The notes below the pieces were generated by a model. The model ran no database searches and was not told where the DNA came from. It saw nothing but the letters and a program-made list of their open reading frames with translations. Positions 21,065 to 39,661 of a DNA stretch of 64,000 nt are shown here, piece after piece. A program made the translations under genes and the position numbers. The stretch is taken from positions 1 through 64,000 of IMG/VR virus record IMGVR_UViG_3300032330_001040; one strand, written 5' to 3'. The first letter of the stretch is position 1, and the number at the start of each line of letters is the position of its first letter. Source of the stretch: a virus. Its lineage: Duplodnaviria > Caudoviricetes.

Positions 21065-21292
21065 ATGTTAGTCAAAGTAAATAATTCCACTTTTGTAAGA
21101 GACACAAATAGTATGGCTCTTATGGATACTGATATGGCTTCTAAAAATGAATACTTATCCAAAGTTCGTATGTTACAGACACAAAAAGAAGAAATAAATA
21201 AAGTAAAATCAGAAATTGCAATCGTCAAAGATGACCTTCAAGAAATCAAACATCTATTGACACAATTAATAAGCAAAGGTTCAAATGTCTAA
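21065..21292 (+). CDS. Small conserved coiled-coil protein of T4-like phages
   Basis: ATG at 21065 ([19 protein letters not shown]...EINKVKSEI...EIKHLL); usual position after the DUF4815 gene. Confidence 0.7.
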
Positions 21293-24200
21293 CGCATATT
21301 CTTTATTAAGTACTGGTAATACTTTTGGTGATTGGATTGTTACAACTAATGCTTTAGTAAAAGAAAACAATGATTTTCATGCCAATAATTACCATAAAAA
21401 TGCAGGTACGTTATACTTAGATGATTCTTCATTAGGACTACAAGTAAATAATCAAGCAATTTTTGCTGGTTCTTTACAAGTAACCGGTACTGGTTCGTCA
21501 GCAACTATTCAAAATAATTTAACAGTACAATCAGGACAAGTATATTTTCAAAATACACAATTAACTTTAGTTGCTTCTGGTCTTATACAAGCCAATGGTC
21601 CTGGTACAGGACTTTATGTTGCTAATACTTCTAATCTTGCTGGCAGATTAAATGTTACAGGTAATACTTTTTTAGGAAACAATTTAAATGTAGTTTACAA
21701 CACAACTACAAGTAACAGTATAACATCACTTGATTCATATGTTGGTAGAACTTTAAATGTAGTTGGAAAAACTTGGACTGATGTATTACAAGCCAATACA
21801 AGTGCCAATACTGCACTATTAACTGTTACTGGTAGAGCATATGTAGATGTATTACAAGCCAATACATCAATAAACACAGCAAATTTAAATGTTACAAATA
21901 ATGTAACAACTGCTAATTTGGTTGCTACAGGTAGTGTTTATGTAACTACTAATATAAATGCAGCTAATATCGTATCAACCAATGTTACGGCTTCTGGTAA
22001 TATATTTTCATCGAATTCTTTTGTTACAAGTAATATTACCACATCAAATGTAGTAGCCACAGGTAGTGTTTATGTAACCAATAATGTTACAACATCTAAC
22101 GTGGTTGTTACAGGTAGTGTTTATGTAACTAGCAATATTAATGCAGCCAATGTTGTGTCTACAAACGTAACTGCTTCAGGTAATATATTTTCATCTAATT
22201 CTTTTGTTACAAGTAACATAACTACATCTAACGTGGTTGCTACAGGTAGTGTGTATGTAACCAATAACGTAACTACATCTAATGTAGTAGCCACAGGTAG
22301 TGTCTATGTAACTACTAATATTAATGCGGCCAATATTGTATCAACCAATGTTACCGCTTCTGGTAACATTATAAGTTCTAATGTATTTGTAACCAATAAC
22401 GTAACTACATCTAATGTAGTAGCCACAGGTAGTGTGTATGTAACCAATAATGTTACAACATCTAACGTGGTTGCTACAGGTAATGTATGGGTTAATAGTA
22501 ATGTACAGGCATCCAATGTTGTAGCTTCGAAATTATATGTTTCAGGTACAACACAGTTAGTTGGTACAGCAAATACTACTGCTGACTTAGGAGTTGGAGG
22601 TAATTTGAATGTACCTAATGCTTTATTCATGGGTAATTCAACATCATCTGCAAACATTTATAATTTAACTGTTGGTCAATCACCGGGAAATGGTGGATTA
22701 ACTGTTCAAGGTAATTTCACTATTGCACAACCAACAATCTATCAAGCACCAAGCTTTACATTGTATGGTGGCACAGCAATTACAGCAGGTAATTATGCAT
22801 ATTTTAATGTAAATAGATTGCCTGGAACTAATGCTTCAATTCGTTGGAATGAAACAAATAAAGAATGGGGCGTTGCAAACGTCATTAGTGGTTCTGTTTA
22901 TCGTATTGTAACTGATGAATATGCAAATGGTAGTTCATCATCAAGTAACTCGATGACATATGCCACTTCGTATGCCTTGGCAAATGCTAATACATTCTTA
23001 CAAAATTTAGATACTGCATCTAATACTGCCATGAAGGCATATGTAGACCAAGCTAATACAGGCATGGCATCATATGTAGTTGCTTCGAATACTGCCATGA
23101 AAGCATATGTGGACCAAGCTAATACAGGCATGGCATTATATGTAGTTGCTTCTAATACTGCTATGAAGGCATATGTAGACCAAGCTAATACTGGTTTAAA
23201 ATCATATACTGATGCTACACATTTCGCAAAATCTGGTGGAGATATTACAGGAACAACAAATGTACAAAGTACATTATTTGTAACATCAACATTGTCAGCC
23301 AATGGTGGTATAAAAATTGGCAGTACAACCATTGCAAATGCTGCTGGTTATTGGACAGGTCCTACTGCTCCTGGTTTTCAAGGTCCTCAAGGATTCCAAG
23401 GCGTACAAGGTGTTGCTGGTTTTCAAGGTCCCCAAGGATTCCAAGGTGTTCAAGGTGCTACGGGACCACAAGGTCCTCAAGGATTCCAAGGTGCTACTGG
23501 TGCTCAAGGTGCTACTGGTGCTCAAGGTCCTCAAGGATTCCAAGGTGCTACTGGTGCTCAAGGTGCTACTGGTGCTCAAGGTCCTCAAGGATTTAATGGA
23601 TTTAATGGTACACAAGGTGCTACTGGACCACAAGGCGCTACAGGAGCTCAAGGACCTACAGGAAGTCCAGGTGGTACAGGACCACAAGGTTTATCAAGTG
23701 GGTCAAGTTTAGTAGTTAGCGGTCCTTTAACTGTTGGCACACAAGGTGCTCCAAATATATCTGCATATATTCAAAATAGTGGCCAAGGGCAAATTTTAGC
23801 TAATACATATTTGACTGGTGTTGGCACCACTAGTGGTAATAATGTTGTCTGTGTCACCACAACCGGAGGCCTTGCCAAGGCAATAAGGTTTGTGGCGCAA
23901 ATAAGCCCAACTAGCTTTACTGATTGGGGTTATCTTGGTGCTGCAGGTCCAATTACTCCGAGTAGTAACTGGTCAATTCAAATGACTGCTACTGGAAAAA
24001 CTTACTACTTTACTTCAGATGGAGATTTTACAGCACCAGGTAATATCACTGCCTACTCTGATATGAGACTGAAAACTAATGTAACTACAATTTCTGGTGC
24101 TTTAGATAAAGTTTCTGCTCTTCGTGGTGTAAGTTTTGATAAAGACGGCAAACGTGGTCTTGGTGTAATTGCTCAAGAAATTCAAAAAATATTACCAGAG

Positions 24201-24323
24201 GTTGTACTTGAAAATAATGATGATGATAAAACATTATCTGTAGCTTATGGTAATATTGTTGGTGTTCTGATTGAAGCTATCAAAGAACTCAAAGTTGAGA
24301 TTGACGAATTGAAGAAAAAATAA
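21285..24323 (+). CDS. Tail fibre with beta-repeats, coiled coil, short collagen and C-terminal peptidase S74 intramolecular chaperone
   Basis: N-terminal NTFGDW motif; repeats; Gly-X-Y run; [12 protein letters not shown]...GVIAQEI...[17 protein letters not shown]. Confidence 0.85.
21880..22530 (+). repeat. Intragenic tandem repeats encoding [16 protein letters not shown]-type units (beta-helix shaft)
   Basis: Many near-identical DNA and protein copies. Confidence 0.85.
23015..23205 (+). repeat. Three 66-nt repeats ([22 protein letters not shown]), coiled coil
   Basis: Direct repeats visible in DNA and protein. Confidence 0.85.
23373..23696 (+). repeat. Collagen-like Gly-X-Y repeat (~36 triplets)
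   Basis: [12 protein letters not shown] triplets. Confidence 0.9.
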
Positions 24324-25253: not shown

Positions 25254-27167
25254 ATGGCTAATACAAATATTTTAATTAAACGGTCAAGTGTTACTTCTTC
25301 CCCGACCAGTTTAGCTTCAGGTGAATTTGCATATTCGTACCTTTCAAACACACTTTTCTTAGGTAATACTTCTGGAACTGGCGTTGTTAATATTGGTGGT
25401 CTACTTTATACTCAAACAATTGACGCAGCAACTTCTGCTAATACAGCAAATACTTTAGTAAAACGTAGGTCTGATGGTGCTTTTTTTGGTCAATTATTTG
25501 GTACTGCTAACTTAGCTATTGCAACTGTATCAAATAATACTTTCCAGATTTCTGGTGGTGATATTACCGCTTCAGCACAATACTTTCAAGGCAATAATAA
25601 TGTCTCATTAAATGCTTCTTTAAATAGTGTTTCTGGTTTAAGTGCAGGTTATTACGGTAGTTCGACAAGTATTCCTACATTACAAATTGGTGCAAATGGT
25701 CGCATTCTTTCTGTAACAACCAATACAATTTCTTCTAGTATTACAATTTCTGGTAACACAGGTTCTAGTACATTACAAACTGGTAATGTACTTTCAATCG
25801 TAGGTAATGGAACAGGTATTGTTGCAACTGAAACAGCCAATGGTTCAGGTGGTGCCAACGTAGTCATTTCTACTGATAATACGATTGCTCGAACTAATAC
25901 AACTTCGGTTGGTCTACAAACTATTTCTACTGACTTAACAATTGCTGGTAATTTAATTGTTACAGGTACACAAACATTTGTAAGTACTGCTACTGTACAA
26001 ACTAATGATTCTCTAATTAAATTAGCTGCAAATAATAATACAGCAGATGTTGTAGATATCGGTTTCTATGGTGGTTCTAATACAGGTTCTTCTGTAGCTT
26101 ATCACGGTTTGATTCGTGAAGGTTCGGGTGGTACATCCGCTGGCAACTTCTATTTGTTTAAAAATTTAGCAACCGATCCTACAGGTAATACAGTAAACTA
26201 TGCTTCGCTATCTAAAGCATCTTTGATTGCTGATTTATCATTATCTACAGGCCTTTCATTAACTACTGGTGTAAGTGGTACATTACCTGTTGCTAATGGC
26301 GGTACAGGAACTACAACAAGTACTGGTACAGGTTCAGTTGTTTTAAGTCAGAGTCCAACATTTACTGGTACTGCAAACTTTACAAATATCAACACTGCAT
26401 CAATTTCTGTTGGTTCTACAACATTCGTTGCAAATAATTTACTTGGTTCTTTCTCTGCTAACAGTAATACTTTTGCACAATTTGTTATTCAAAATGCTAA
26501 TACAGGAACACAATCATCTGTCGATTTCGTTGTAAATAACGATAGGTCCACTAACGACACCTACTTTGGTGATTTTGGTATGAACAGTTCTGGATTCTCT
26601 GGTCCAGGTGTATTAGACTTACCAAATGCAGTTTACCTATATGCTAAAGATGCAGATTTAGTTCTTGGTACACATAGCGCTAACGCAATTCATTTTGTAG
26701 TAGCTAATGGTACTACTGATGCCATGAACATCAATTCGTCTGGTGTTGTTACTTTAGGTACTGCTCTTGCCGTTTCTTCTGGTGGTACTGGCCGTAATAC
26801 ATTTACTTCAGGACAAATGATAGTTGGTAATGGTACAGGCGCCTTACAATCATTAGCAAATTCATCATTAACAGTTACAGGAACTTCCGGTCTACAAAAT
26901 AATACAATCACTTCTGTATCTGTTGACGCTTATGGTAGAACAACTGCTTTAACATATTCCGTAATCTCTGGATTAACAGTAGGCCAAGGCGGTACTGGGG
27001 CTTCTTCATTTACAACAAACGGTATCACTTATGGTAATGGAACAGGTGCGATTGGTGTTACCGCTGCTGCAGGTACTTCTGACCAAACTTGGTCGAATCA
27101 AATTCTTACTGTAACAAATGCAGGAGTTCCTGTTTGGACAACAACAATGGATGGTGGCACGTTCTAA
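25254..27167 (+). CDS. Fibre protein (ILIKRS...GEFAYS N-domain, GGTG repeats, ends MDGGTF)
   Basis: Repeated LxVxxGGTG fibre motifs; Thr/Ser/Gly-rich. Confidence 0.75.
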   Translation: MANTNILIKRSSVTSSPTSLASGEFAYSYLSNTLFLGNTSGTGVVNIGGLLYTQTIDAATSANTANTLVKRRSDGAFFGQLFGTANLAIATVSNNTFQISGGDITASAQYFQGNNNVSLNASLNSVSGLSAGYYGSSTSIPTLQIGANGRILSVTTNTISSSITISGNTGSSTLQTGNVLSIVGNGTGIVATETANGSGGANVVISTDNTIARTNTTSVGLQTISTDLTIAGNLIVTGTQTFVSTATVQTNDSLIKLAANNNTADVVDIGFYGGSNTGSSVAYHGLIREGSGGTSAGNFYLFKNLATDPTGNTVNYASLSKASLIADLSLSTGLSLTTGVSGTLPVANGGTGTTTSTGTGSVVLSQSPTFTGTANFTNINTASISVGSTTFVANNLLGSFSANSNTFAQFVIQNANTGTQSSVDFVVNNDRSTNDTYFGDFGMNSSGFSGPGVLDLPNAVYLYAKDADLVLGTHSANAIHFVVANGTTDAMNINSSGVVTLGTALAVSSGGTGRNTFTSGQMIVGNGTGALQSLANSSLTVTGTSGLQNNTITSVSVDAYGRTTALTYSVISGLTVGQGGTGASSFTTNGITYGNGTGAIGVTAAAGTSDQTWSNQILTVTNAGVPVWTTTMDGGTF

Positions 27168-27196
27168 AATTTATTAATTTATTATAGGAGTTTGAA

Positions 27197-27802
27197 ATGA
27201 GTAATGAGAATTATGTTAATTATTATGTAGAAATTTTAACAAGTACATTAACGGACGCAATTGTAAGAAATGTTTCTTTACAGGCAAATGCAAAAGTTAC
27301 TAATGAAGTTATTGAAACACAATCTAAACAATTAGATAATTTAAATGGTATTATTGATAATTTAAATGATGAATTAGAAATAATTAAACATAATAATTCT
27401 GTTGATAATGATAATCGTATAGAAAATTTACAATCAGAATTGAAACAAAAAAATGAACATATTGATAATTTGAACAGACAAGTAAATGAATTAAATTCAA
27501 TGAGGTCTGAATATGATAATGTAAAACATCAAATTTCTCATTTAGATACTTTTAGAAATGAACTATCTAAAGAAAGAGATTTACATCAAAATACTCGCAA
27601 TGATTATGAAAGTAAATTAAAAAATTTACAAGAATCACATAGTGAAAAAATTAAAGAATTGACTGATAAAATTGACTATTTACAATTAACTCCTGCCAAA
27701 CGTAAAAAAATTGATGAAATAAAAAATACTGTTGTTATTGAAAATTTAGAAATTGTTACACCAGAAAATAATACCATAATAAAGGATGGCGGAAGTTTTT
27801 AA
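27197..27802 (+). CDS. Coiled-coil protein ending KDGGSF (fibre-associated or assembly chaperone)
   Basis: AGGAG SD; heptad-rich and charged; shared C-terminal motif. Confidence 0.65.
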   Translation: MSNENYVNYYVEILTSTLTDAIVRNVSLQANAKVTNEVIETQSKQLDNLNGIIDNLNDELEIIKHNNSVDNDNRIENLQSELKQKNEHIDNLNRQVNELNSMRSEYDNVKHQISHLDTFRNELSKERDLHQNTRNDYESKLKNLQESHSEKIKELTDKIDYLQLTPAKRKKIDEIKNTVVIENLEIVTPENNTIIKDGGSF

Positions 27803-27806
27803 TTAA

Positions 27807-28937
27807 ATGGCAAATACAACAATAGTATTAAAAAAATCTGGAGTTCCTGGCAACGTACCATCAACACTAGCCAACGGTGAACTTTCGATTAACTACGCTG
27901 ACGGTAAATTATTTTATCGTGCGGCTAATGGAACAATCTCAACAATTTCCGGTTCAGGCGGAGGCGGAAGTTCGGCAAATTCTTTTGCCACAATTAATTC
28001 AAACTCATCTTTAATATTAGCTACAAGTGCCAGCGATACACTCACTTTTATTGGTGCAAATGGTATTAGTATTACAACGAATACAACATCAAAAACAATT
28101 ACTATTGGTCAAGGTGCTACAGGTCCACAGGGTGTACAAGGTGCTACAGGTCCACAAGGTTCTCAAGGTTCAACTGGACCTCAAGGTGTACAAGGTGCCA
28201 CAGGACCTCAAGGTGTACAAGGAGCTACCGGTCCACAAGGTTCTCAAGGTTCAACTGGACCTCAAGGTGTACAAGGTGCCACAGGACCTCAAGGTGTACA
28301 AGGAGCTACCGGTCCACAAGGTGTACAAGGTTCAACTGGACCTCAAGGTTCTGTAGGTGCTCAAGGTTCTACTGGACCTCAAGGTGTACAAGGAGCTACC
28401 GGTCCACAAGGTGTACAAGGTTCAACTGGACCTCAAGGTTCTGTAGGTGCTCAAGGTTCTACTGGACCACAAGGTTTTCAAGGTTATCAAGGTAGTATAG
28501 GTCCTTATGGTCCAACAGGCCCTCAAGGTAGTACAGGACCTCAAGGTGTACAAGGTGCGGCCGGAACATCAACGAATTCATTTGCAACAGTTAATGCAAA
28601 TGGAACTCCAATTTATGCGGATACTTCAACAGATGCATTGAACATTCAAGCTGGTAATAATATTACCATATCAGCAAATAGTTCAACAAAAACCATCACA
28701 ATTAATTCTACAGGTGGTGGCGGTACAAGCCAAGGTATTGGTGGTTATAATCATTCAACATTAAATTATTTTCCGGTGTATGATTATTTAAAAAATGAAA
28801 GTTATGATGAAAATGAAGCCTATGTTGGTGAAGCAGGTCCTACAGTTGATGCTTTTGGAATTAGTTTGACTACATCTTTTGATTGTATGGATCCTATAGG
28901 CAGTACACAAATATCAGATTTAGGAACTATATCATAA
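27807..28937 (+). CDS. Collagen-containing fibre protein
   Basis: IVLKKS...GELSIN N-domain; about 51 Gly-X-Y triplets flanked by two copies of an NSFAT...KTITI domain. Confidence 0.8.
28113..28571 (+). repeat. Collagen Gly-X-Y repeat with near-identical DNA units ([15 protein letters not shown])
   Basis: Highly periodic DNA, indicating recent expansion. Confidence 0.9.
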
Positions 28938-28946
28938 TTAAACTAT

Positions 28947-28954
28947 GATAAATA
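28947..28954 (+). promoter_or_regulatory. Late promoter GATAAATA
   Basis: Intergenic, followed by a GGAG SD. Confidence 0.7.
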
Positions 28955-28976
28955 TATAAAATATTCGGAGCTTTAG

Positions 28977-31049
28977 ATGCCATCACAAGTACAATTTAGA
29001 AGAGGTAATACTGCACAAGTCCAAGCTTTTACAGGAGCTGTGGGTGAAATTGCAATTGATACAACAACAAAACAAATTTCTGTTCAAGACGGAGCTACTC
29101 CTGGTGGTACATATTTAGCTACACAAAGTTTTGCTCAAGCGGCATACAATACTGCCAATAGCGCAGCATCTGGTGCATATGCAACGGCAGCTTTTGATAC
29201 TGCCAATGGCGCATTTATAAAAGCAAACACAGCCAATACTACTGCTGATGCTGGATTTGCCAAAGCAAATTTAGCCAACACACTTGCTCAATCAGCATTT
29301 AATCAAGCGAATACAGCCAACGTTACCGGTCAATCTGCCTTTGATAAAGCAAATGTGGCAAATACAATTGCTCAATCATCATATAATTGGTCTAATACAA
29401 TTAATGTATTTGCTCAATCAGCATATACTATGGCAAATACGGCCAACATTACTGGCCAAGCTGCCTTTGATAAAGCAAACTTAGCCAATATTACCGCTGA
29501 TGCTGGATTTGCCAAAGTAAATACAGTTTTACTTTATGCGCAATCAGCATTTTCTTTAGCAAATACTACTTCAACAGTATCTCAATCTGCATATGATTGG
29601 TCTAATACAATTAATGTATTTGCACAGTCAGCATATAGTAAAGCCAATGTGGCCAATACTACAGCAGAAGCAGGATTTGCTAAAGCAAACGTAGCTAATA
29701 CAACAGCAGATGCTGGTTTTGCCAAAGCAAATTTAGCCAATACGTTAGCTCAAGCTGCTTTTGATAGAGCAAATACAAAATTTAATTCGTCTGGTGGTAC
29801 AATTTCTGGTGATGTTACTGTAACAGGTAATATATTACCAACATCAGCAAATACAAATACTTTAGGTTCAGCAAGTTATCCTTGGAAATCAGTTTATGTT
29901 GGACCAAATTCATTATATATTGGTGACATAAAATTAAGTAGTGTTGGTGGTGCATTACAGTTAGATAATGCAACAAATCTTGTATTAAATGGAACATCAG
30001 TACCAAATAGTTCAGATATTTCTTTAACTGCTAATGCAGCCTTTGCTAAAGCCAATATAGCTAACACTACGGCTGATGCTGCTTATGCTTGGGGTAATAC
30101 AATTAATGTGTTTACTCAATCTGCTTTTTCAAAAGCAAACGTAGCCAATACTACTGCTGATGCTGGATTTGCCAAAGCAAACTTAGCCAATACTCTTGCT
30201 CAATCAGCATATGATAGTTCAAATACAGTTTTAGTATATGCACAATCGGCATTTTCTTTAGCAAATACTACTTCAACAGTAGCTCAAGGTGCTTTTGATA
30301 GAGCGAACACAAAATTCAATTCTTCTGGTGGTACAATTTCTGGTGCAGTTACAATTTCAGGCAATAATAGTTTAACTGTTACTGGTAACTTAATCGTTCA
30401 AGGTACAACATTTAGTTCCAATACAACAACATTTGAATTGAATGACCCATTAATATTATTAGGTGTTGGTAATTACTTATCAGATACTAAAGATATTGGA
30501 TTTGCTGGTCACTATAATGATGGTACAAATGCTCACTCAGGACTTGTTCGTGATTCAAGTACAAAAGAATATTACTTCTTTAAAGGATATACTCCTGATA
30601 TTGATGCAAATAATAACGTTGATATTTCACACTATTCATTTGCTACAGCCAACGTAAACGCTAATAAAGTTACTGCTAAAGACATGGTGGCTAATACATT
30701 TACCATGTATGATAATGCTTGTACTTCAATTTCACTTACTTCAGTAGGTTCGGCTTGTACATCATTTTTAAATATGAGTTCAACTGTTGATACATGGTCT
30801 TCAATGACATATCGTACTGCAAAATACTTGTGTCAAATAACTGCAGGTTCAAGTTATCATGCAATAGAATTATTAGCAATACATGATGGTAATACAGCCA
30901 ATTTAGTTCAGTATGGTGAAATTGTAACTGCAAATTCTCTTGGTTATTTTGATGCCTATGTAATGGCAGGAACATTCACACTTACATTTACACCAACAGT
31001 CAATCAATACTCTTTTATTAAATTTACAAAAGAATTGGTTAAATCTTAA
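28977..31049 (+). CDS. Fibre protein with Mtd_N-like N-terminus, AFxKAN coiled-coil repeats and C-terminal YRTAKY domain
   Basis: QVQFRRG..AFTGAVGEIAIDT; repeats; DTWSSMTYRTAKYLCQI...ELLAIHDG...QYGEI. Confidence 0.8.
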   Translation: MPSQVQFRRGNTAQVQAFTGAVGEIAIDTTTKQISVQDGATPGGTYLATQSFAQAAYNTANSAASGAYATAAFDTANGAFIKANTANTTADAGFAKANLANTLAQSAFNQANTANVTGQSAFDKANVANTIAQSSYNWSNTINVFAQSAYTMANTANITGQAAFDKANLANITADAGFAKVNTVLLYAQSAFSLANTTSTVSQSAYDWSNTINVFAQSAYSKANVANTTAEAGFAKANVANTTADAGFAKANLANTLAQAAFDRANTKFNSSGGTISGDVTVTGNILPTSANTNTLGSASYPWKSVYVGPNSLYIGDIKLSSVGGALQLDNATNLVLNGTSVPNSSDISLTANAAFAKANIANTTADAAYAWGNTINVFTQSAFSKANVANTTADAGFAKANLANTLAQSAYDSSNTVLVYAQSAFSLANTTSTVAQGAFDRANTKFNSSGGTISGAVTISGNNSLTVTGNLIVQGTTFSSNTTTFELNDPLILLGVGNYLSDTKDIGFAGHYNDGTNAHSGLVRDSSTKEYYFFKGYTPDIDANNNVDISHYSFATANVNANKVTAKDMVANTFTMYDNACTSISLTSVGSACTSFLNMSSTVDTWSSMTYRTAKYLCQITAGSSYHAIELLAIHDGNTANLVQYGEIVTANSLGYFDAYVMAGTFTLTFTPTVNQYSFIKFTKELVKS
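29130..30345 (+). repeat. Ala/Asn-rich coiled-coil repeats (AFDKANVANTTA...) with a duplicated AFDRANTKFNSSGGTISG block
   Basis: Repeats visible in protein and DNA. Confidence 0.8.
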
Positions 31050-31072
31050 AAAAACAAAGGGGACAATGAACC

Positions 31073-32500
31073 TTGGCCACATCAAATTTATTTGTAGTTA
31101 AAAACGGTTTAGCCGTTGGTAACACAAATGTTATCAATTCTTCAGGACAATGGATAGGACCAAGTACTAATATTACTGGTCCTTCTGGTGCTCAAGGACG
31201 TAATGGTGTTCAAGGTTCTACAGGTCCAACCGGTAATACAGGTGTTTCTGGTATTCAAGGACCACAAGGACTTGCTGGAGCTCAAGGTCCACAAGGTTTT
31301 CAAGGCCCCCAAGGATTTCAAGGACCTACAGGAACTCCTGGTGTACAAGGAACTTTAGGTGCTTCAGGTGTACAAGGCGCTACTGGACCACAAGGTGTAC
31401 AAGGTGCTCAAGGACCTCAAGGCAGTACAGGTTTTCCTGGACCTTCAGGTCCATCTGGCGTTCAAGGACCACAAGGTGTATCAGGAGTGCAAGGTGCTCA
31501 AGGTACTACTGGTCCACAAGGTTCACAAGGACCAACAGGCGCTCAAGGTCCATCTGGTGTTCAAGGCCCTCAAGGTACTTCAGGCAGTGCAGGTTTTCAA
31601 GGACCACAAGGTTTAAATGGTGCTCAAGGCACTCAAGGACCACAAGGCGCTCAAGGTCCAGTAGGTAGTAATGGTCCTCAAGGTGCTCAAGGTGGGCCTG
31701 GTTTAATAGGTCCACAAGGTGCAACAGGAGTTACAGGTGTTCAAGGTCCTCAAGGTTCATCTGGAACTGTTGGTGCTACTGGAATTCCTGGTGGTACAGG
31801 TCCAACAGGTCCTCAAGGTGTTCAAGGTCCATCCGGTGTACAGGGTGCTCAAGGACCAGCAGGCGCTCAAGGTCCAGCCGGTGCTCAAGGTTCAGCAGGA
31901 AGTCCTGGCGCTCAAGGACCAGCAGGCGCCACAGGTCCTACAGGTACACCTGGTGCTCAAGGACCTACAGGTGGTTCAGGTCCAGCCGGCGCTCAAGGTC
32001 CAACAGGACCCACAGGACCAACAGGACCCACAGGTCCAACAGGTCCAACAGGACCATCAGGTTCTGGTACGACTTCATCTACTGGTTCTGTTTCCGCATT
32101 AGGAGTTAATGCTTCAGTTGGACCTACAGGTACGATTCAATGTTCGGGTGACATCGTTGCTTTCTATTCTGATGAGAGACTAAAAAAGAATATTGAAATC
32201 ATAAAAGATTGTTTATATAAAGTACAGAGTATGACAGGAATATATTACACAATTAATAAAGTGGCAGAAAAACATGGTTTTACAGATTATAGTAGACAAG
32301 TTGGTTTAATTGCACAACAAATTGAATCTTTTGCACCTGAAGTTATTAAACCAGCACCGTTTGATATAGATGAAAATGGCGATAGTAAATCTGGACAAAA
32401 TTATTTAACTGTACAATACGAAAAAATAGTTCCAATTCTCATTGAAGCAATTAAAGAACAACAAACGAGAATTAAAATATTATTGGAGGAAAGTAAATAA
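31073..32500 (+). CDS. Collagen fibre chain A (98 Gly-X-Y triplets) with S74 auto-cleaving chaperone; TTG start
   Basis: FVVKNGL anchor; collagen 31178-32059; [13 protein letters not shown]. Confidence 0.9.
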
Positions 32501-33945
32501 TGGCTACCAATAATAATTTTAATATTAAAAATGGTTTAACAGTTTCTAGTGCATCATCTAATACTTCTGTTATTAATTCTAGTGGTGTTTGGACAGGACC
32601 AACAACAAATATTCAAGGCGCTCAAGGACCTCAAGGTACACAAGGTGTACAAGGTGCCACAGGACCTCAAGGTTATCAAGGTTCACAAGGTGCAACAGGA
32701 TTTCAAGGCGTAGCTGGTGTTCAAGGTGCTCAAGGTCCAAATGGTAATCAAGGTGCTCAAGGTGTGTCTGGTGTTCAAGGTGCTCAAGGTGCTACCGGTC
32801 CACAAGGTTCACAAGGACCTGCTGGCGCTCAAGGTGCGCAGGGTTCATTAGGAGCTCAAGGCACAATAGGAAATTCAGGTGTTCCAGGAACTCAAGGTGC
32901 CACAGGTTCTACAGGTGTACAAGGTGCACAAGGTAATGCTGGCGCTCAAGGTTCTTCAGGTTTTCCTGGACCTTCAGGTCCATCTGGTGTTCAAGGTGCT
33001 CAAGGACCTACAGGTATGGCTGGTTTTCCAGGTCCTCAAGGTGCACAAGGTGTACAAGGTGCTCAAGGTGCTCCAGGTTCTTTAGGTGCTCCTGGTATTC
33101 CAGGTGTTTCGGGACTTCAAGGACCTACTGGTTCTTCAGGTGCTCAAGGTCCAGCAGGACCACAAGGTGTTCAAGGCCCCGCAGGTCCTACAGGACCACA
33201 AGGTGTTCAAGGTTTTCAAGGTGCTGGAGGTTCTTTAGGTGCTCCTGGTAGACAAGGACCTTCTGGTGCTCAAGGTCCGGCAGGATTTCCAGGACCAACA
33301 GGAACAACTGGACCTACAGGTAGTACAGGATTTCCAGGACCTTCAGGCCCAGCCGGTGCTCAAGGACCTACAGGTTTTACAGGCAGACAAGGTTCTACAG
33401 GAAGTCCAGGTCCTTCCGGTGCTCAAGGACCAGCAGGCGGTACAGGTAGTACCGGACCTCAAGGTCCAACAGGACCTACAGGACCTACAGGTCCATCAGG
33501 AACATCTCCTTCAAGTTTATCAACATCAGTTAGTGCTTTAGGTGTAAATACTGCCGCAGTTACCACAGGATGGTTACATGCAACAGGTGATATTGTTGCT
33601 TATTATTCCGACATACGACTTAAAGATAATATTGAAACTATTAAAAATGCCGGCGATAAATTATATACACTTAATGGAATTTTTTACACACAAAATAAAT
33701 TTGCTGAACAGTTTGGTTATAATGATTATAAAAGGCAAGTTGGTTTAATTGCACAAGAAGTTCAAAAAATTATGCCAGAAGTTATTAAACCAGCACCGTT
33801 TGATGTAGATGAAAATGGTAATAGTAAATCAGGTGAAAATTATTTAACTATTCAATATGAAAGATTAATTCCACTTATTGTAGAAACTATAAAAGAACAA
33901 CAAAAAGAAATTGAAGAATTGGAAAAGTTAAATGGCCACCAATAA
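32500..33945 (+). CDS. Collagen fibre chain B (98 triplets) with S74 chaperone
   Basis: FNIKNGL anchor; collagen 32617-33498; [13 protein letters not shown]. Confidence 0.9.
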
Positions 33946-35356
33946 TAATTTTATTGTTAAAAATGGATTAGCTATTGCTAATACCACATCCAATACTGTT
34001 GTAATTGCTGCTAACGGTGTTTGGGTTTCTTCACAATCATCCTATAGTGGTTATCAAGGTCCTCAAGGACCACAAGGTGCATCAGGTGTTCAAGGACCAC
34101 AAGGTTCTGTAGGTACACAAGGTCCTCAAGGTGCACAAGGTACTGTTGGTCTTTCAGGATTTCAAGGCGCAATAGGTTTTACAGGTGCTCAAGGTACACA
34201 AGGACCAACAGGCGCTCAAGGTTCTTCAGGTTTTCCTGGACCAAATGGCGTTCAAGGACCGGCAGGAGTTGCAGGCGTTCAAGGTAATTTAGGTCCTCAA
34301 GGTAGTCAAGGACCTACTGGTGCTCAAGGTCCACAAGGTTTTCAAGGACCTTTAGGTTCACCTGGTGTTCAAGGACCATTAGGTGCATCTGGTGTACCTG
34401 GCGCTCAAGGCACACAAGGTTCTCTTGGCCCTCAAGGTTTTATGGGAGCATCTCCAACAGGACCTCAAGGATTTCAAGGAAACTTAGGTTCACCTGGTGT
34501 TCAAGGAGCTCAAGGCAGACAAGGACCACAAGGTTTTCCTGGACCAAATGGCGTTCAAGGACCTGCTGGTCCAGCCGGCTTTCAAGGACCTGTAGGTTCT
34601 CCTGGTTCTCTTGGTAGACAAGGTGTTCAAGGACCAACAGGTGCTCAAGGCCCAGCTGGCGCTCAAGGACCACAAGGCCCCGCAGGTGTTCAAGGTTCTA
34701 CAGGACCTAGTGGCGTTCCGGGTACAACAGGCCCACAAGGAACTTTTGGCGCTTCAGGATCCACAGGTCCTCAAGCGGCTTCAGGTGCACAAGGTCCTCA
34801 AGGACCACAAGGACCTACAGGACCATCTGGTGCTCAAGGACCAACAGGTGGTACAGGTGCAACAGGACCTACAGGACCTACAGGAAGTCCAGGTGGTACG
34901 GGACCAACAGGTCCTCAAGGACCTTCAGGAGGTTCAGTAACACAAGTTGTTGCATTAAATGTTAACACTTCTGGTGCACCAACTGGTTATGTTTATGCTA
35001 CATCAGATATAACCGTTTTTTATTCTGATAAGAGATTAAAAGATATTGAAACAAACATACAAGAAGCATTACAAAAAGTAAATGAATTAAATGGTGTATA
35101 TTATGAACAGAACGATTTAGCTAAAAAGATGGGTTATAATAATGATGGTGAAAAACAAATAGGTTTAATTGCTCAGAATGTTCAGAAAGTTTTACCAGAA
35201 GTTATAGGATTGGCGGCTTTTGACACAGATAAATATGGACAGAGCAAATCAGGAAATAACTATTTAAGTATAAAATATGCAAAAATAGTACCTCTTTTAA
35301 TTGAAGCTCTAAAGCAACAGAAAGAACAGATAGAATATATTAAATCAAAAAAGTGA
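33932..35356 (+). CDS. Collagen fibre chain C (293-aa helix, two imperfections) with S74 chaperone
   Basis: FIVKNGL anchor; collagen 34049-34927; [13 protein letters not shown]. Confidence 0.9.
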
Positions 35357-35368
35357 AAGTGAATTATT

Positions 35369-35941
35369 ATGAATGGTGAATGGTGTTACTTTAAATCATA
35401 TTTTTCTCCAGAAAATTGTCAAAAAATTATTGATGATGCGGCAGATATACCGGTACAAGACGGCATTTTAGGTACTGGTGAAAATACTACGGTAGATTTA
35501 TCTTTTAGAAGAAGTAAAATTCGGTTTGTTAATTCTGACAATCCAAAATTTACTTGGTTATTTGATGAGTTATGGAAAACAGCTCTACAAGCAAACAGAG
35601 ATTTTTTCAATGTGCATATTACAAGATTACCATTTATTCAAATTGCTGAATATAATTATCTTGATAAAGGTGAATACAAAGAACATCATGATGTTTTTTG
35701 GTTAAACAATGATCCAATATACCACAGAAAACTTTCCTGTATTATTCAATTAAGCGACCCAAATGATTATCAAGGTGGTGATTTTGAAATTACAGAAGGT
35801 GTGGCGCCCCTCGATAAAGAAATTAAAAATCAAGGTTCAATCATTTACTTTCCTTCAATGTTTAGGCATCGTGCAAACCCTGTCCTAAGGGGTACTAGAT
35901 ATAGTGTAGCAGCCTGGTTTGAAGGACCTAAGTGGAGATAG
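35369..35941 (+). CDS. 2OG-Fe(II) oxygenase (prolyl-hydroxylase-like superfamily)
   Basis: HHD...RKLSCIIQLSDPNDYQGGDF...FPSMFRHRANPV.RGTRYS..AW. Confidence 0.9.
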   Translation: MNGEWCYFKSYFSPENCQKIIDDAADIPVQDGILGTGENTTVDLSFRRSKIRFVNSDNPKFTWLFDELWKTALQANRDFFNVHITRLPFIQIAEYNYLDKGEYKEHHDVFWLNNDPIYHRKLSCIIQLSDPNDYQGGDFEITEGVAPLDKEIKNQGSIIYFPSMFRHRANPVLRGTRYSVAAWFEGPKWR

Positions 35942-35942
35942 A

Positions 35943-36662
35943 ATGAATGATATTGTTATGGAAGTTGAGCCTTTTAAATATTTCATAGTTGATAATTTTT
36001 TACCATTAAATACAGCCAAAAAACTCTCAATAGAATTTCCTGATTTTGATTCATCAATTTGGTATGATTATGATAATCCATTGGAAGTAAAAAAGACAAT
36101 CAACAATTGGTTTCATTTCCCACCATTAACGTATAAACTATTCAATGATTTAAATGGCATTGAATTTACTGATTCATTAAAAGATTTTATGGATTTAGAA
36201 AGTCTTTATTCTGATATGGGTTTATATGGAGGCGGCTGGCACATTCATGGTCGTGGTGGAAAATTAAATGTACATCTTGATTACGCTGTACATCCAAAAT
36301 TGAACCTAGAACGTAAACTCAATCTCATTTTATACCTAACACCAGATTGGGATCCAAAATGGGGTGGTAATTTAGAGTTCTGGTCACACGATGAAAAATT
36401 AAACAAACCAAAAGAAAAAATTAAAACAATTGATTGTGTTTTTAATCGTGCTGTTATTTTTGATACATCACAAAACTCATGGCATGGTTTCAATGAACCA
36501 ATTAATTGTCCTGAAGGTGTGTATAGAAAAAGTGTGGCAACATACTATCACACAGATTTATCTCCAACTACACCAAAAAGAAAAAGAGCATTATATAGTC
36601 CATCAAAAGAACAAGAGAATGATAAAGAAATATTAGAATTGATTGAAAAGAGAGCAAAATAA
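35943..36662 (+). CDS. 2OG-Fe(II) oxygenase (2OG-FeII_Oxy_3 / prolyl hydroxylase-like)
   Basis: GGKLNVHLD, LNLILYL..DW...WGGNLEFW, FNRAVIF..SWHG, RKSVATYY; ATG 35943 after a GGAG SD. Confidence 0.9.
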   Translation: MNDIVMEVEPFKYFIVDNFLPLNTAKKLSIEFPDFDSSIWYDYDNPLEVKKTINNWFHFPPLTYKLFNDLNGIEFTDSLKDFMDLESLYSDMGLYGGGWHIHGRGGKLNVHLDYAVHPKLNLERKLNLILYLTPDWDPKWGGNLEFWSHDEKLNKPKEKIKTIDCVFNRAVIFDTSQNSWHGFNEPINCPEGVYRKSVATYYHTDLSPTTPKRKRALYSPSKEQENDKEILELIEKRAK

Positions 36663-38386
36663 TGGTTGAAAAAAAATGTAAAATTGTAATGACTACAATG
36701 TTTCAAAATGAATCTAAAACAATTAGAAGAATGTTGGAGTCTTGTTACAAATATATTGATTTTTGGGTAATACAAAATAATGGTTCAACAGATGGTACAG
36801 AAGAAATTGTCAAAGAGTTTTTTACTGAACATAAAATACCTGGTTTTTTATACAATGTGGAAGAAGGTTGGGTTGGATTTGGTTGGAACCGTGACCACTT
36901 AACACAAACTTGCCAAAGTATTGACCATGGTTGTGATTGGATTCTTAAAATGGATTGTGATGAGATTCTACAAGTAGATGATGATTTCGATTGGTCAATA
37001 CTAGATGATACATCAGTTCATTCTTGGGAAATTCCTTGTGTTCAAGGCACATCAACATACACTAGATGTTGGATGTGGAATGCAAAAATGAAATGGAGAT
37101 TTAATCACGACCCATGCCATGAAACTGTCTATTGTGCTGATGAGACTATTGGTGATAATTTTCAAAGAGTTTTATTGCCACAATCATTTAGACAAACTGG
37201 TTTTAACGAAGGTCAAAGTTGGGGAGTACCAACCAAATTTATGAGTCACGCTCTCATCTTAGAAGAAAAGATGATGGTCGAAGATAGTTTTAAAACAAAC
37301 CTATATCATTTTTGGTATATTGGTAAAAGTTATTTTGATGCTTGGGAATCAAATAATTTTCCATTGGGTGAAAGCCAAAAGAAAGAATATGGTCGTAGAT
37401 GTATCTATTATTTTAGTGAATATCTAAATCATACACACAGATTTGATGAAACACAATCAGCACAATTTATTGATGAAGTTTCTTATATGTCTATGTTAAT
37501 GATTGCACAAATCTATGGATATTTTAAAGACAATGAAAAACAAATAAGTTATTTAAAATTGGCAAATTCTTTTGCACCAGGTAGAAATGACCACTTTTTA
37601 TCTTTAGCATATAAGTACCAAGAATTAGGAGATTGGAAAAATATGCATCAGTATACAAGTATTATGATGCAACCCGAAAGAACAAATGCCTACCCAACTT
37701 ATACTAATTTTGTTAATTCAGCTATGTATCATGACGGTGGACCTTTAATACATGACTTGCATCAATTTGCAAGTAGTAAATTACAAGAAGAAAATAATTT
37801 ACACAATGAACATCCACCATTTTATATTAATAAATCATATGGTAAAAAATTGTTTGTTGTGGATAATTTCTACAATGATCCAGACACAATTAGAGAGTTT
37901 GCTTTAAATCAAGTTGAATATAAAGAAGATTTGAGATGGTATAAAGGACTTAGGTCTGTAAGACCATATCGTCCAAAAGGAATTAAAGAAGCCTTTGAGT
38001 TTATTATGGGTGAACCTATTGTGGATTTTGAACAAGGTTACAATGGTGTATTTCAAATTTGTATAGCACAAGACCCACAAGTTTATCATTATGATATGCA
38101 AAAATGGGCTGCCATGATATACATGACACCAGATGCACCATTAGAAAGTGGTACAAGATTACATAGGTCTAAAATTAATGGTGCCAGAAGAGCAACAGAT
38201 GCTGATGCTGATAGAGCTTTCTCTGGTGGATTTTATGATTCTACCAAATTTGATATTGCCGATTCAGCTGGTAACCTGTATAATAGATTAGTCATCATGG
38301 ATGCCAGATGTATTCATTCGGCAGGACCATATTTTGGACAAAACAAACAAGACGGCAGACTGACACATTTATTTTTCTTTGATTAA
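36662..38386 (+). CDS. Fusion: GT2 glycosyltransferase + TPR-like helices + C-terminal 2OG-oxygenase-like (DUF6445-like) domain
   Basis: NESKTI.RML.S...NGSTDGT, MDCDE (DxD), HET; helical middle region; VVDNFY.DPD...HYD...WAAMIY.TPDAP..SGT...YNRLVI...HSA...RL. Confidence 0.8.
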   Translation: MVEKKCKIVMTTMFQNESKTIRRMLESCYKYIDFWVIQNNGSTDGTEEIVKEFFTEHKIPGFLYNVEEGWVGFGWNRDHLTQTCQSIDHGCDWILKMDCDEILQVDDDFDWSILDDTSVHSWEIPCVQGTSTYTRCWMWNAKMKWRFNHDPCHETVYCADETIGDNFQRVLLPQSFRQTGFNEGQSWGVPTKFMSHALILEEKMMVEDSFKTNLYHFWYIGKSYFDAWESNNFPLGESQKKEYGRRCIYYFSEYLNHTHRFDETQSAQFIDEVSYMSMLMIAQIYGYFKDNEKQISYLKLANSFAPGRNDHFLSLAYKYQELGDWKNMHQYTSIMMQPERTNAYPTYTNFVNSAMYHDGGPLIHDLHQFASSKLQEENNLHNEHPPFYINKSYGKKLFVVDNFYNDPDTIREFALNQVEYKEDLRWYKGLRSVRPYRPKGIKEAFEFIMGEPIVDFEQGYNGVFQICIAQDPQVYHYDMQKWAAMIYMTPDAPLESGTRLHRSKINGARRATDADADRAFSGGFYDSTKFDIADSAGNLYNRLVIMDARCIHSAGPYFGQNKQDGRLTHLFFFD

Positions 38387-38389
38387 ATT

Positions 38390-39661
38390 ATGAAACAATA
38401 CAAATTTAGTTTTATCACACCTGAACACAGTCCAGAAAATATACCATATTTACTTGAATTATACGATTCAATTATTAATCAAACATATTCTAATTGGGAA
38501 TGGATTATTTTAACAAATAATAAATGTACTCCACATCATTTACCAGAAAAAATACAAAATGATTTAAGAGTAAAAATATTTCATTGGAATGGACAAACAG
38601 CCAGTATTGGCCGTTTAAAATTAGATGCGTTTAATTTGGGTACAGGTGATATATTAGTTGAAGCCGACCATGATGATATGTTTACTCCAGATTGTTTAGA
38701 AGAATTAAATAAAGCATACCAAGATGAATCAACTGGATTTGTTTATTCAGATAATGCTGTTTATCATATGAAAGATGAATTTGTTCCTTATTCATCAGAC
38801 AATGGCTGGACCTATAAAATGTATAATTGGAAAGGTAAAGATTTGTATGCGATGCATAGTTTTGAACCTTCTAGTCACAGTTTAGGTTATATTTGGTTTG
38901 CGCCAGACCATGTAAGAACATGGAGAGCATCCGTGTATAAAGAAATTGGTGGCCATAACCCCGAATTAGAGATTTGTGATGACCATGAATTGTGTATTCG
39001 AACTTACTTAAAAACTAAGATGGTTCGTATACCTAAGGTTCTCTATATTTACAGAGTTACTGGTGTTAATACATCAATGAACAGTAGAAATGCCGATATA
39101 CAAATTAAAACTGTAGAATTATTTAATCAATATGCAAGACAGTTGGCAGAAAAGGATGCTGATAATAAAGGATTATTAAAAGTAGATATTGGTGGAGGAT
39201 TAAATCCATTTCCAGGTTATGTGACGGTAGACCTTAGAGATACGGCTGATTATCCTAACTGTGATTTAAATGATGGTATTCCTTTACCTGATAATTCAGT
39301 TGGAGTATTAAATGCCAGTCATATTTTAGAACATTTACATGATAAAACCAAAATCATGTCTGAAATACATAGAGTATTGGCACATGGAGGATGGGCTTTT
39401 ATTGATGTCCCTAGTACCGATGGACGTGGAGCATTTCAAGACCCCACTCATGTAAGTTATTGGAATGAAAACAGTTTCTTATATTATACAGATGCTTACT
39501 TAGCTAACTTTATAGACAATAAAAATATTAAATTTCAACAATATAGGAAAGAAACTTATTTTCCAAATGATTGGATGAAAAGTCTAAATGTTTTAGTAAC
39601 AACCGCTTGGTTAGTATCCATTAAAGATGGACCTAGATTACCAGGACTACTGAAGATTTAA
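38390..39661 (+). CDS. Fusion: GT2 glycosyltransferase + class I SAM-dependent methyltransferase
   Basis: SIINQTYSNWEWII, EADHDD, EIGGHN...CDDHELCIR; VDIGGG, SHILEHL, EIHRVLAHGG, QDPTH. Confidence 0.85.
   Translation: MKQYKFSFITPEHSPENIPYLLELYDSIINQTYSNWEWIILTNNKCTPHHLPEKIQNDLRVKIFHWNGQTASIGRLKLDAFNLGTGDILVEADHDDMFTPDCLEELNKAYQDESTGFVYSDNAVYHMKDEFVPYSSDNGWTYKMYNWKGKDLYAMHSFEPSSHSLGYIWFAPDHVRTWRASVYKEIGGHNPELEICDDHELCIRTYLKTKMVRIPKVLYIYRVTGVNTSMNSRNADIQIKTVELFNQYARQLAEKDADNKGLLKVDIGGGLNPFPGYVTVDLRDTADYPNCDLNDGIPLPDNSVGVLNASHILEHLHDKTKIMSEIHRVLAHGGWAFIDVPSTDGRGAFQDPTHVSYWNENSFLYYTDAYLANFIDNKNIKFQQYRKETYFPNDWMKSLNVLVTTAWLVSIKDGPRLPGLLKI

Follow-up and report, generated by a model that had tools for sequence, protein, structure and literature searches.

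To our knowledge, only animals are known to make collagen heterotrimers, with the attendant problem of choosing different chains and setting them in register. Collagens of bacteria and phages are regarded as homotrimers, and their value as models and as materials is limited accordingly (PMC8968730). In the Peptidase_S74 (S74) chaperone of phage T5 pb1, three C-terminal helices form a central triple coiled coil; this is the presumed starting point of folding, and register may be set by salt bridges from one helix to the next (PMC4690869). Here, we analyse a 64,000-nucleotide (nt) stretch of viral DNA, hereafter the window, which covers positions 1 to 64,000 of IMG/VR record IMGVR_UViG_3300032330_001040, a virus of the Caudoviricetes. 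It carries three adjacent genes, a, b and c, each of which encodes an N-terminal anchor (N-anchor), a collagen tract, a linker and a C-terminal S74 domain, and the three tracts are matched in length. No natural heterotrimeric phage or bacterial collagen was found in the literature.

An earlier reading of the window from its letters (the original prediction) had proposed that the three chains stay in register in one triple helix, with the S74 domains acting as chain-selecting C-propeptides, and had suggested a survey of related phages. Relatives were fetched from IMG/VR and the JGI metagenomes with the S74 domain as bait, and their loci and contigs are numbered L005, L007 and so on. The length-locked trio is real, is widespread in this phage group and is under selection. 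We give a probability of about 0.6 to the reading that a, b and c would wind, as one strand each, into the same ABC heterotrimeric collagen fibre of ~85 nm, selected by the S74 domains; this reading is drawn from sequence comparison.

Three adjacent collagen genes

On the + strand, the open reading frames (ORFs) of a, b and c follow one another head to tail (Table 1), with overlaps of 1 nt between a and b (TAATG) and of 14 nt between b and c; gene a has a forced TTG start directly after an in-frame stop. All three match Pfam Collagen (PF01391) above the curated cut-off, with E-values of 8.5e-44 (a), 1.3e-45 (b) and 3.2e-43 (c), and carry a C-terminal Peptidase_S74 domain (PF13884) at 38.4 (E = 1.5e-9), 49.4 and 44.0 bits, respectively, against a cut-off of 22. 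A whole-genome scan found four copies of this domain, three of which are those of a, b and c. The Ser/Lys motif S-D-x-R-x-K is intact as SDERLK in a (Ser366), SDIRLK in b and SDKRLK in c; the form SDxRLK was seen in all aligned orthologues, the Ser/Lys motif itself having been a selection criterion in the survey of relatives.

The Gly-X-Y tracts span 297, 297 and 296 amino acids (aa) in a, b and c, and each amounts to 99 units; the in-phase units number 99 unbroken in a, 99 unbroken in b and 97+2 in c. Linkers of 29-33 aa connect the tracts to the S74 domains. The anatomy described in the original prediction (F-x-x-K-N-G-L, then G-x-W, then nine residues from W to the first in-phase Gly) was recovered in 3/3 chains. 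Its measurements hold as well: 294, 294 and 293 aa from the first Gly to the last GPS, with a Gly deletion in chain c at GAS-PT-G; 36, 36 and 32 aa from the last GPS to the Ser of an intact SDxRLK; the first GFP triplet as number 29 in a, 39 in b and 21 in c; and other collagen tracts of 36 and 51 triplets in the window. The triplet orders are indeed not colinear, X/Y identity giving z = 0.5, 0.4 and -0.7 against shuffled triplets.

Besides its Gly deletion, chain c holds one triplet in which Ala replaces Gly (Table 1), and a Gly-to-Ala change within the helix is of a kind that is pathogenic in animal collagens. The charged residues in the listed window tracts are Arg alone, 1-2 per chain, with no acidic residue and no lysine visible. 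Axial charge pairs were considered as a register code and found to be inapplicable to such tracts.

Unit number is matched within clusters

Tract lengths were counted in Gly-anchored units, in which a triplet counts as 1, a Gly deletion (G-x-y-x-y-G) as 1 and a one-residue insertion as 0; the count omits large non-collagen inserts, and the tract ends before the L-G-V-N motif of the linker. A ceil(gap/3) rule, which over-counted chains with one-residue insertions (212 versus 187 units in chain c of L097), was replaced by this rounding rule, and a first tract-end rule, which ran into the linker in chain b of L143 (146 versus 138 units), by the L-G-V-N stop.

The survey yielded 25 complete three-gene clusters in related viral and metagenome contigs. 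As the original prediction had expected, the genes of the relatives come in threes with lengths matched within a genome and variable between genomes, here ~nine-fold (22 to 203 units per chain). The within-cluster range is ≤1 unit in 11 of the 25 clusters, ≤3 in 16 and ≤4 in 20. Its median is 2 units, versus 87 with genes permuted between clusters; none of 100,000 permutations was as good, and the test on 20 non-redundant lineages likewise gave 0/100,000. Matched sets include 99/99/99 in the window, 107/107/107, 69/69/69, 126/126/126, 170/170/169, 166/166/167 and 202/202/203. The match was replicated in later metagenome loci (138/138/139, 136/135/132, 28/30/28 and 29/30/28), which were fetched after the hidden Markov models (HMMs) of the classes and the unit rule had been fixed and before the tract-end rule.

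Clusters of two, or of four or more, copies with unmatched lengths had been named beforehand as speaking against a shared helix. Two-gene clusters do exist, yet they too are matched in length (95/93, 81/79, 28/27, 158/156 and 192/190), with a constant offset of 1-2 units. They therefore do not count against the proposal in the way foreseen. One part of the claim is to be corrected: what is conserved is how many Gly-anchored units a chain has, and not how many residues. Residue spans alone are correlated as well, at r of at least 0.98; in the first 19 clusters, the median within-cluster range was 1 unit versus 12 residues. Chain c of L097 contains 27 one-residue insertions and 23 extra residues, and its cluster still counts 188/187/186 units, while chain c of L011 contains 12 breaks (11 of them Gly deletions) and equals its partners in unit count. 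Less closely matched are L096 (182/175/181) and L163 (40/34/34), the latter a distant type with very long linkers.

S74 classes and gene coupling

In a maximum-likelihood tree of linker plus S74 domain, the sequences form three clades (for supports, see Table 1), and each clade contains exactly one gene from every three-gene locus in the tree. One each of a, b and c is found in 22 of the 25 complete clusters, the divergent L152, L153 and L163 being labelled ambiguously. The gene order is a-b-c or b-a-c, with c last throughout, and the apparent two-gene remnants of this lineage are all explained by contig ends. A sister lineage (L013-L016, L215-L217) has exactly two genes, of classes d and e; there, class d is nearly unbroken and class e has 3-20 Gly-deletion breaks.

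The S74 domains are 60% identical between orthologues versus 50% between paralogues of the same genome. The N-anchors are without class signal (orthologues 47% versus paralogues 49%). The part that distinguishes the chains is thus the S74 domain, which is the very part expected to be removed at the SDxRLK site. Three ancient S74 classes, one of each per phage, together with class-free N-anchors fit a putative chain-selecting and removable C-terminal domain.

The charges of the S74 terminal helix are conserved by class: b is acidic (K-E-I-E-E-L type), c has I-K-S-K-L and a is basic further on; class d is acidic, like b. The whole S74 domain of class b is net negative in all 21 distinct b sequences. 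Heptads assigned from hydrophobic spacing would place Glu at position g in classes b and d and Lys at position e in classes c and e. An AlphaFold2 monomer model of the chain b linker and S74 domain, of low confidence (pLDDT 44), has a helix at fragment residues 147-172. The class-conserved charge pattern points to what may be a defined partner set.

Gene junctions within the clusters range from -23 to +3 nt (nine clusters were measured to the start codon, the others to where the open frame begins); such tight coupling would fit equimolar synthesis. An in-frame stop immediately precedes the first gene in most of the 18 listed clusters, and a Leu codon (TTG) serves as the apparent start there. 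This first gene, which is of class a, b or d, opens with the peptide (M)-A-T-x-x-x-F, and the later genes of a cluster mostly have an ATG that abuts or overlaps the preceding stop.

Length changes between close strains

The near-identical strain L005 has 96.1% identity to the window in the DNA of the cluster and 95-97% in the orthologous proteins. The alignment of the two shows exactly three 72-nt gaps, one per gene, with 99/99/99 units in the window versus 107/107/107 in L005. The extra segments of L005 lie near the C-end of the tracts (~units 86-92 of 99), differ in sequence from gene to gene and are 87-93% like a neighbouring repeat or a paralogue. An upstream unrelated collagen gene differs between the two strains by one triplet only. 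In the two-gene lineage, L014 and L015 are exactly 14 units apart in both genes, and in the sister pair L009 (25/22/26) and L022 (69/69/69) all chains shift together.

Among the paralogous tracts of the window, X/Y identity in the ungapped register equals the shuffled-triplet baseline, and just the last ~11 triplets (G-P-T...G-P-S) are alike; a self-comparison of their DNA gives short off-diagonal matches only, at ≤80% identity. Since the tracts are not colinear, recent gene conversion is no explanation for the length match.

Breaks and inserted domains

Breaks on different chains fall within ±3 units of each other in 17 cases versus 27.6 expected from circular shifts (P = 0.006), and in 12 versus 22 in the central region (P = 0.002); this test of break avoidance was exploratory, with six variants run. 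A shared helix would lead to selection against two broken strands at one level, whereas independent fibres would show no dependence. Coinciding breaks between chains, as in collagen IV, were also considered and rejected, with 3 exact coincidences versus 4.2 expected. Breaks spaced by 12 units were seen in L008, L010, L011, L084, L101, L007 and L022, and the class that carries them differs between phages.

In some relatives, a PA14/GLEYA lectin-type domain (156-179 aa) interrupts the tract of a single chain, or such domains sit at different levels in the tracts of two chains. The other inserted domains measure 169-227 aa (Table 1), among them one of 173-227 aa that is placed likewise. The unit counts without inserts still match: 126/126/126 in L125, 170/169/173 in L113 and 183/179/183 in L008. 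Fibres that would otherwise be 'headless' can, on this predicted architecture, carry binding domains looped into the stalk.

Genomic context

The source record is a 114-kb contig of an uncultured virus, estimated to be 69% complete. By PHROG matches, baseplate wedge subunits and VrlC-type proteins are encoded upstream of the trio, and terminase, sheath, portal, scaffold and major head protein downstream, so that the trio is flanked by the baseplate/VrlC genes on one side and by those for neck, terminase and sheath on the other. This layout of the window matches that described for pelagi- and cyanomyophages (PMC7029224). The virus is a T4-like myovirus of pelagi/cyanomyophage type, and the trio, with three further fibre genes ahead of it (Table 1), sits in its tail-fibre/host-recognition region. 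No cultured phage with the trio was found: megablast of positions 27000-39000 against cultured phages gave no match, tblastn against cultured phages gave S74-domain matches only, at ≤50% identity, and the locus that tblastn matched in Pelagibacter phage HTVC008M lacks such a trio.

The genes for the two oxygenases, the GT2/DUF6445 protein and the 423-aa protein (Table 1) stand directly behind gene c in almost all related loci (L005-L127). Both oxygenases are missing from the loci with the shortest collagens, L009 (22-26 units), L094 and L095. The enzymes of this cassette are candidate collagen modifiers, and the conserved position behind gene c suggests that the fibre may be modified.

Table 1. 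Positions of the features discussed in the text; those headed by a locus number refer to that locus, all others to the window
Feature	Positions	Strand	Remarks
Chain a (A of the original prediction)	31073-32500	+	475 aa; TTG start; S74 clade a, support 100/99
Chain a, N-anchor	31073-31177
Chain a, collagen tract	31178-32068
Chain a, linker	32069-32167
Chain a, S74 domain	32168-32497
Chain b (B of the original prediction)	32500-33945	+	481 aa; S74 clade b, support 100/94
Chain b, N-anchor	32500-32616
Chain b, collagen tract	32617-33507
Chain b, linker	33508-33606
Chain b, S74 domain	33607-33942
Chain c (C of the original prediction)	33932-35356	+	474 aa; S74 clade c, support 100/99
Chain c, N-anchor	33932-34048
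Chain c, collagen tract	34049-34936
Chain c, linker	34937-35023
Chain c, S74 domain	35024-35353
Chain c, break	34454-34459	+	Gly deletion G-A-S-P-T-G after unit 45; also in strain L005
Chain c, Gly-to-Ala triplet A-A-S	34775-34783	+	unit 82; G-A-S in near-identical strain L005
Site of +72 nt (8 triplets) in L005, chain a	31955-31956	+	~unit 86 of 99
Site of +72 nt in L005, chain b	33447-33448	+	~unit 92 of 99
Site of +72 nt in L005, chain c	34876-34877	+	~unit 92 of 99
Downstream cassette	35369-39661	+	follows gene c directly; conserved
Two 2-oxoglutarate (2OG)-Fe(II) oxygenases	35369-35941, 35919-36662	+	Pfam
GT2/DUF6445 protein	36662-38386	+	Pfam
Conserved 423-aa ORF	38390-39661	+
Upstream fibre gene	21285-24323		1012 aa; 36 triplets and the fourth S74 domain
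Upstream fibre gene	27807-28937		376 aa; 51 triplets, without S74 domain
Upstream fibre gene	28977-31049		690 aa; Mtd_N-type N-terminus, Ala/Asn-rich repeats
PA14/GLEYA inserts	L113:6570-7037, L113:3921-4421, L125:5550-6086
Other inserted domains	L008:11856-12374, L159:6801-7481, L155:1683-2189

Proposed assembly of the chains

If a, b and c form one fibre, coupled translation would supply them in near-equal amounts, and their class-specific C-terminal S74 domains would associate first through the terminal coiled-coil helices, admitting one chain per class. This association would set the register, and the collagen helix would then zip from the C-end to the N-end. The Ser-Lys dyad (SDxRLK) would next cut off each S74 domain, as the C-propeptide is cut from procollagen. 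The mature fibre would consist of a generic trimeric N-anchor, a triple helix of ~85 nm and a tip of ~30 aa per chain, with sugar-binding domains looped into the stalk in some relatives. When strands share one helix, any length change must hit all three of them, and breaks would be tolerated only where the other two strands are intact. One shared triple helix is the most economical cause of a length lock to the single unit, and it also accounts for three conserved classes of a domain that would be discarded, for generic N-anchors and for breaks that avoid each other. For the proposal in its fullest form, an obligate ABC heterotrimer (2:1 in the two-gene lineage) with co-evolved, self-excising S74 domains, probably modified by the cassette and the first outside animals, we see slightly better than even odds.

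Several observations weigh against an ABC heterotrimer. The unit-counting rule and the trimming of tract ends were both settled post hoc, with the data already viewed. Some clusters are unmatched: L007 counts 76/61/63 units, and its b chain has a perfect internal tandem duplication; L112 counts 128/128/92, with the missing stretch inside a long tandem repeat; L158 counts 137/135/96, and the related contigs L159 and L157 have c tracts of 132 and 125 units; and the two-gene cluster L013 counts 49/30. Near-identical sister contigs of L112 carry the matched length, and its mismatch is likely to be an assembly collapse; the outlier clusters in general could be assembly collapses or real variation. 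The three 72-nt indels between the window and L005 lie in a locally repetitive region, and this comparison alone is modest evidence because 72 nt is a natural slippage quantum; by our estimate, the concordance alone would be a ~1-in-16 event if the variants are common in the population and independent. Furthermore, the breaks in different chains do not line up. A Gly deletion or a one-residue insertion confined to one strand would upset the one-residue stagger, and this would have to be taken up locally, by stretching or bulging, at as many as 27 positions, whereas a homotrimer accommodates such breaks naturally, all three strands shifting together. In many clusters, Gly-deletion breaks (G-x-S/A-P-x-G) recur exactly every 12 units in one chain only. 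Finally, every solved S74 chaperone assembly is a homotrimer (6F45 and 7DC3, the nearest by sequence, and T5 pb1), and the characterized prokaryotic collagens are described as homotrimers (PMC8968730).

In the first alternative, each gene makes its own homotrimeric fibre (a3, b3 and c3) and a shared constraint from outside keeps the lengths equal; this would be, for example, docking at equivalent virion sites with the same distance to be spanned, or tying at both ends. Such fibres would conform to all solved S74 assemblies and all characterized prokaryotic collagens, and breaks that are not aligned are natural when a chain pairs only with itself. With breaks every 12 units in one chain, a homotrimeric rod would be hinged at regular intervals, and the lectin inserts would form trimeric knobs. 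We nevertheless regard separate homotrimers, the strongest rival, as the less likely reading. Agreement to ±1 unit (<1 nm) over 20-175 nm is too fine for the reach of separate, thermally flexible rods. In a separate fibre, a PA14 knob would add physical length beyond that of the partners, yet the collagen unit count equals theirs, so that a match of the insert-free units fits strand pairing better than equal reach. Only the S74 domain, which would be discarded, is strongly class-specific; the N-anchors being generic, three separate fibres would have to vie for a single docking site, and the upkeep of three chaperone classes would lack a cause. Independent fibres also predict none of the avoidance between breaks on different chains.

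The second alternative retains mixed helices of variable composition (a2b, ab2, abc), in which the S74 domains select only loosely and the lengths are matched so that any mix can form. The length lock and the generic N-anchors fit any mixed assembly, and the two-class sister lineage, with its matched lengths, must be 2:1 if it is heteromeric. Variable mixing is nevertheless improbable, given that 25 of 25 complete clusters have three genes, with one each of a, b and c in the 22 clearly called, that the class-conserved charges of the terminal helix point to a defined partner set, and that 1:1:1 translational coupling suits a defined abc trimer.

That concerted evolution (by gene conversion or unequal exchange) produced the equal lengths passively, with no selection on length, is very unlikely. 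Homogenization is seen in places: X/Y identity between a and b of L011 exceeds that of shuffled triplets (z = 6.3), all three chains resemble one another over their C-terminal ~11 triplets, and in chain b of L005 the added segment is 93% like part of chain c over 57 nt. Yet the window tracts count 99/99/99 while being no closer than shuffled triplets, with paralogous DNA at ≤80%, indels are frequent enough (three of 72 nt at 4% divergence) that unselected lengths would drift before colinearity was erased, and the S74 classes are ancient.

Comparison with known systems

If the ABC heterotrimer is correct, it would extend natural heterotrimeric collagens beyond animals for the first time, with a 'procollagen' logic that evolved independently. 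A small, self-removing domain that assembles three defined chains in an E. coli-like cytoplasm would be a tool for register-defined heterotrimeric collagens, and the series of 22-203 units would reveal, by its breaks in single chains and its looped-in lectin domains, the tolerance of a mixed triple helix. Phage biology would gain a new type of fibre, located in the host-recognition region of aquatic myoviruses, an abundant group. A sub-nanometre length lock between three fibres would demand explanation even if these are separate.

Like Scl1/Scl2 of Streptococcus, BclA of Bacillus and the prophage fibres of E. coli, the three chains consist of Gly-X-Y without hydroxyproline-rich composition and with Gln- and Thr-rich triplets; as in other prokaryotic and phage collagens, a flanking non-collagen domain would serve for trimerization and the tracts would form the stalks of surface or tail fibres. 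The known examples are described as homotrimers (PMC8968730) and drift freely in tract length, whereas here two or three different chains share a unit count.

The S74 domains share PF13884, with SDxRLK at the junction, with the K1F endosialidase (3GW6), T5 pb1, the S16 long tail fibre (6F45) and MYRF (7DC3). As in the S74 phage fibres, the domain would stand at the C-end of an elongated trimeric fibre in the tail-fibre module, and its predicted terminal helix would correspond to the central coiled coil of the chaperone. The known S74 fibres are single genes that form homotrimers, and their chaperone folds a β-helical or β-prism tip. Here, in contrast, the chaperone comes in three conserved classes, carried by three collagen chains of locked length, and what remains after cleavage would be almost only collagen plus ~30 residues.

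Mimivirus likewise encodes collagen-like proteins together with a modifying enzyme, the hydroxylase-glucosyltransferase L230, and the cassette behind gene c would be the counterpart, with its probable modifying 2OG oxygenases and glycosyltransferase. The L230 enzyme acts on lysine, whereas no lysine is visible in the listed tracts of the window, and no length-locked multi-chain set has been described for Mimivirus.

A likeness in function would be to the animal collagens and C1q (the C-propeptide of procollagen I, NC1 of collagen IV and gC1q). If the heterotrimer is true, both have different chains of equal length, a C-terminal domain that picks the chains and sets the register, and zipping from C to N, with removal of the domain as in procollagen. 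C1q tolerates a break that differs between its chains. The adjacent hydroxylase-type and glycosyltransferase genes would parallel the collagen-modifying enzymes of animals. A Pfam search of the chains gave only Collagen and Peptidase_S74, with no matches to COLFI, C4 or C1q; as the selecting domains are not homologous, the likeness to procollagen would be one of function and not of descent. In contrast to its animal counterparts, the S74 domain would cut itself, without a separate protease, and the protein is viral and would assemble without a secretion pathway.

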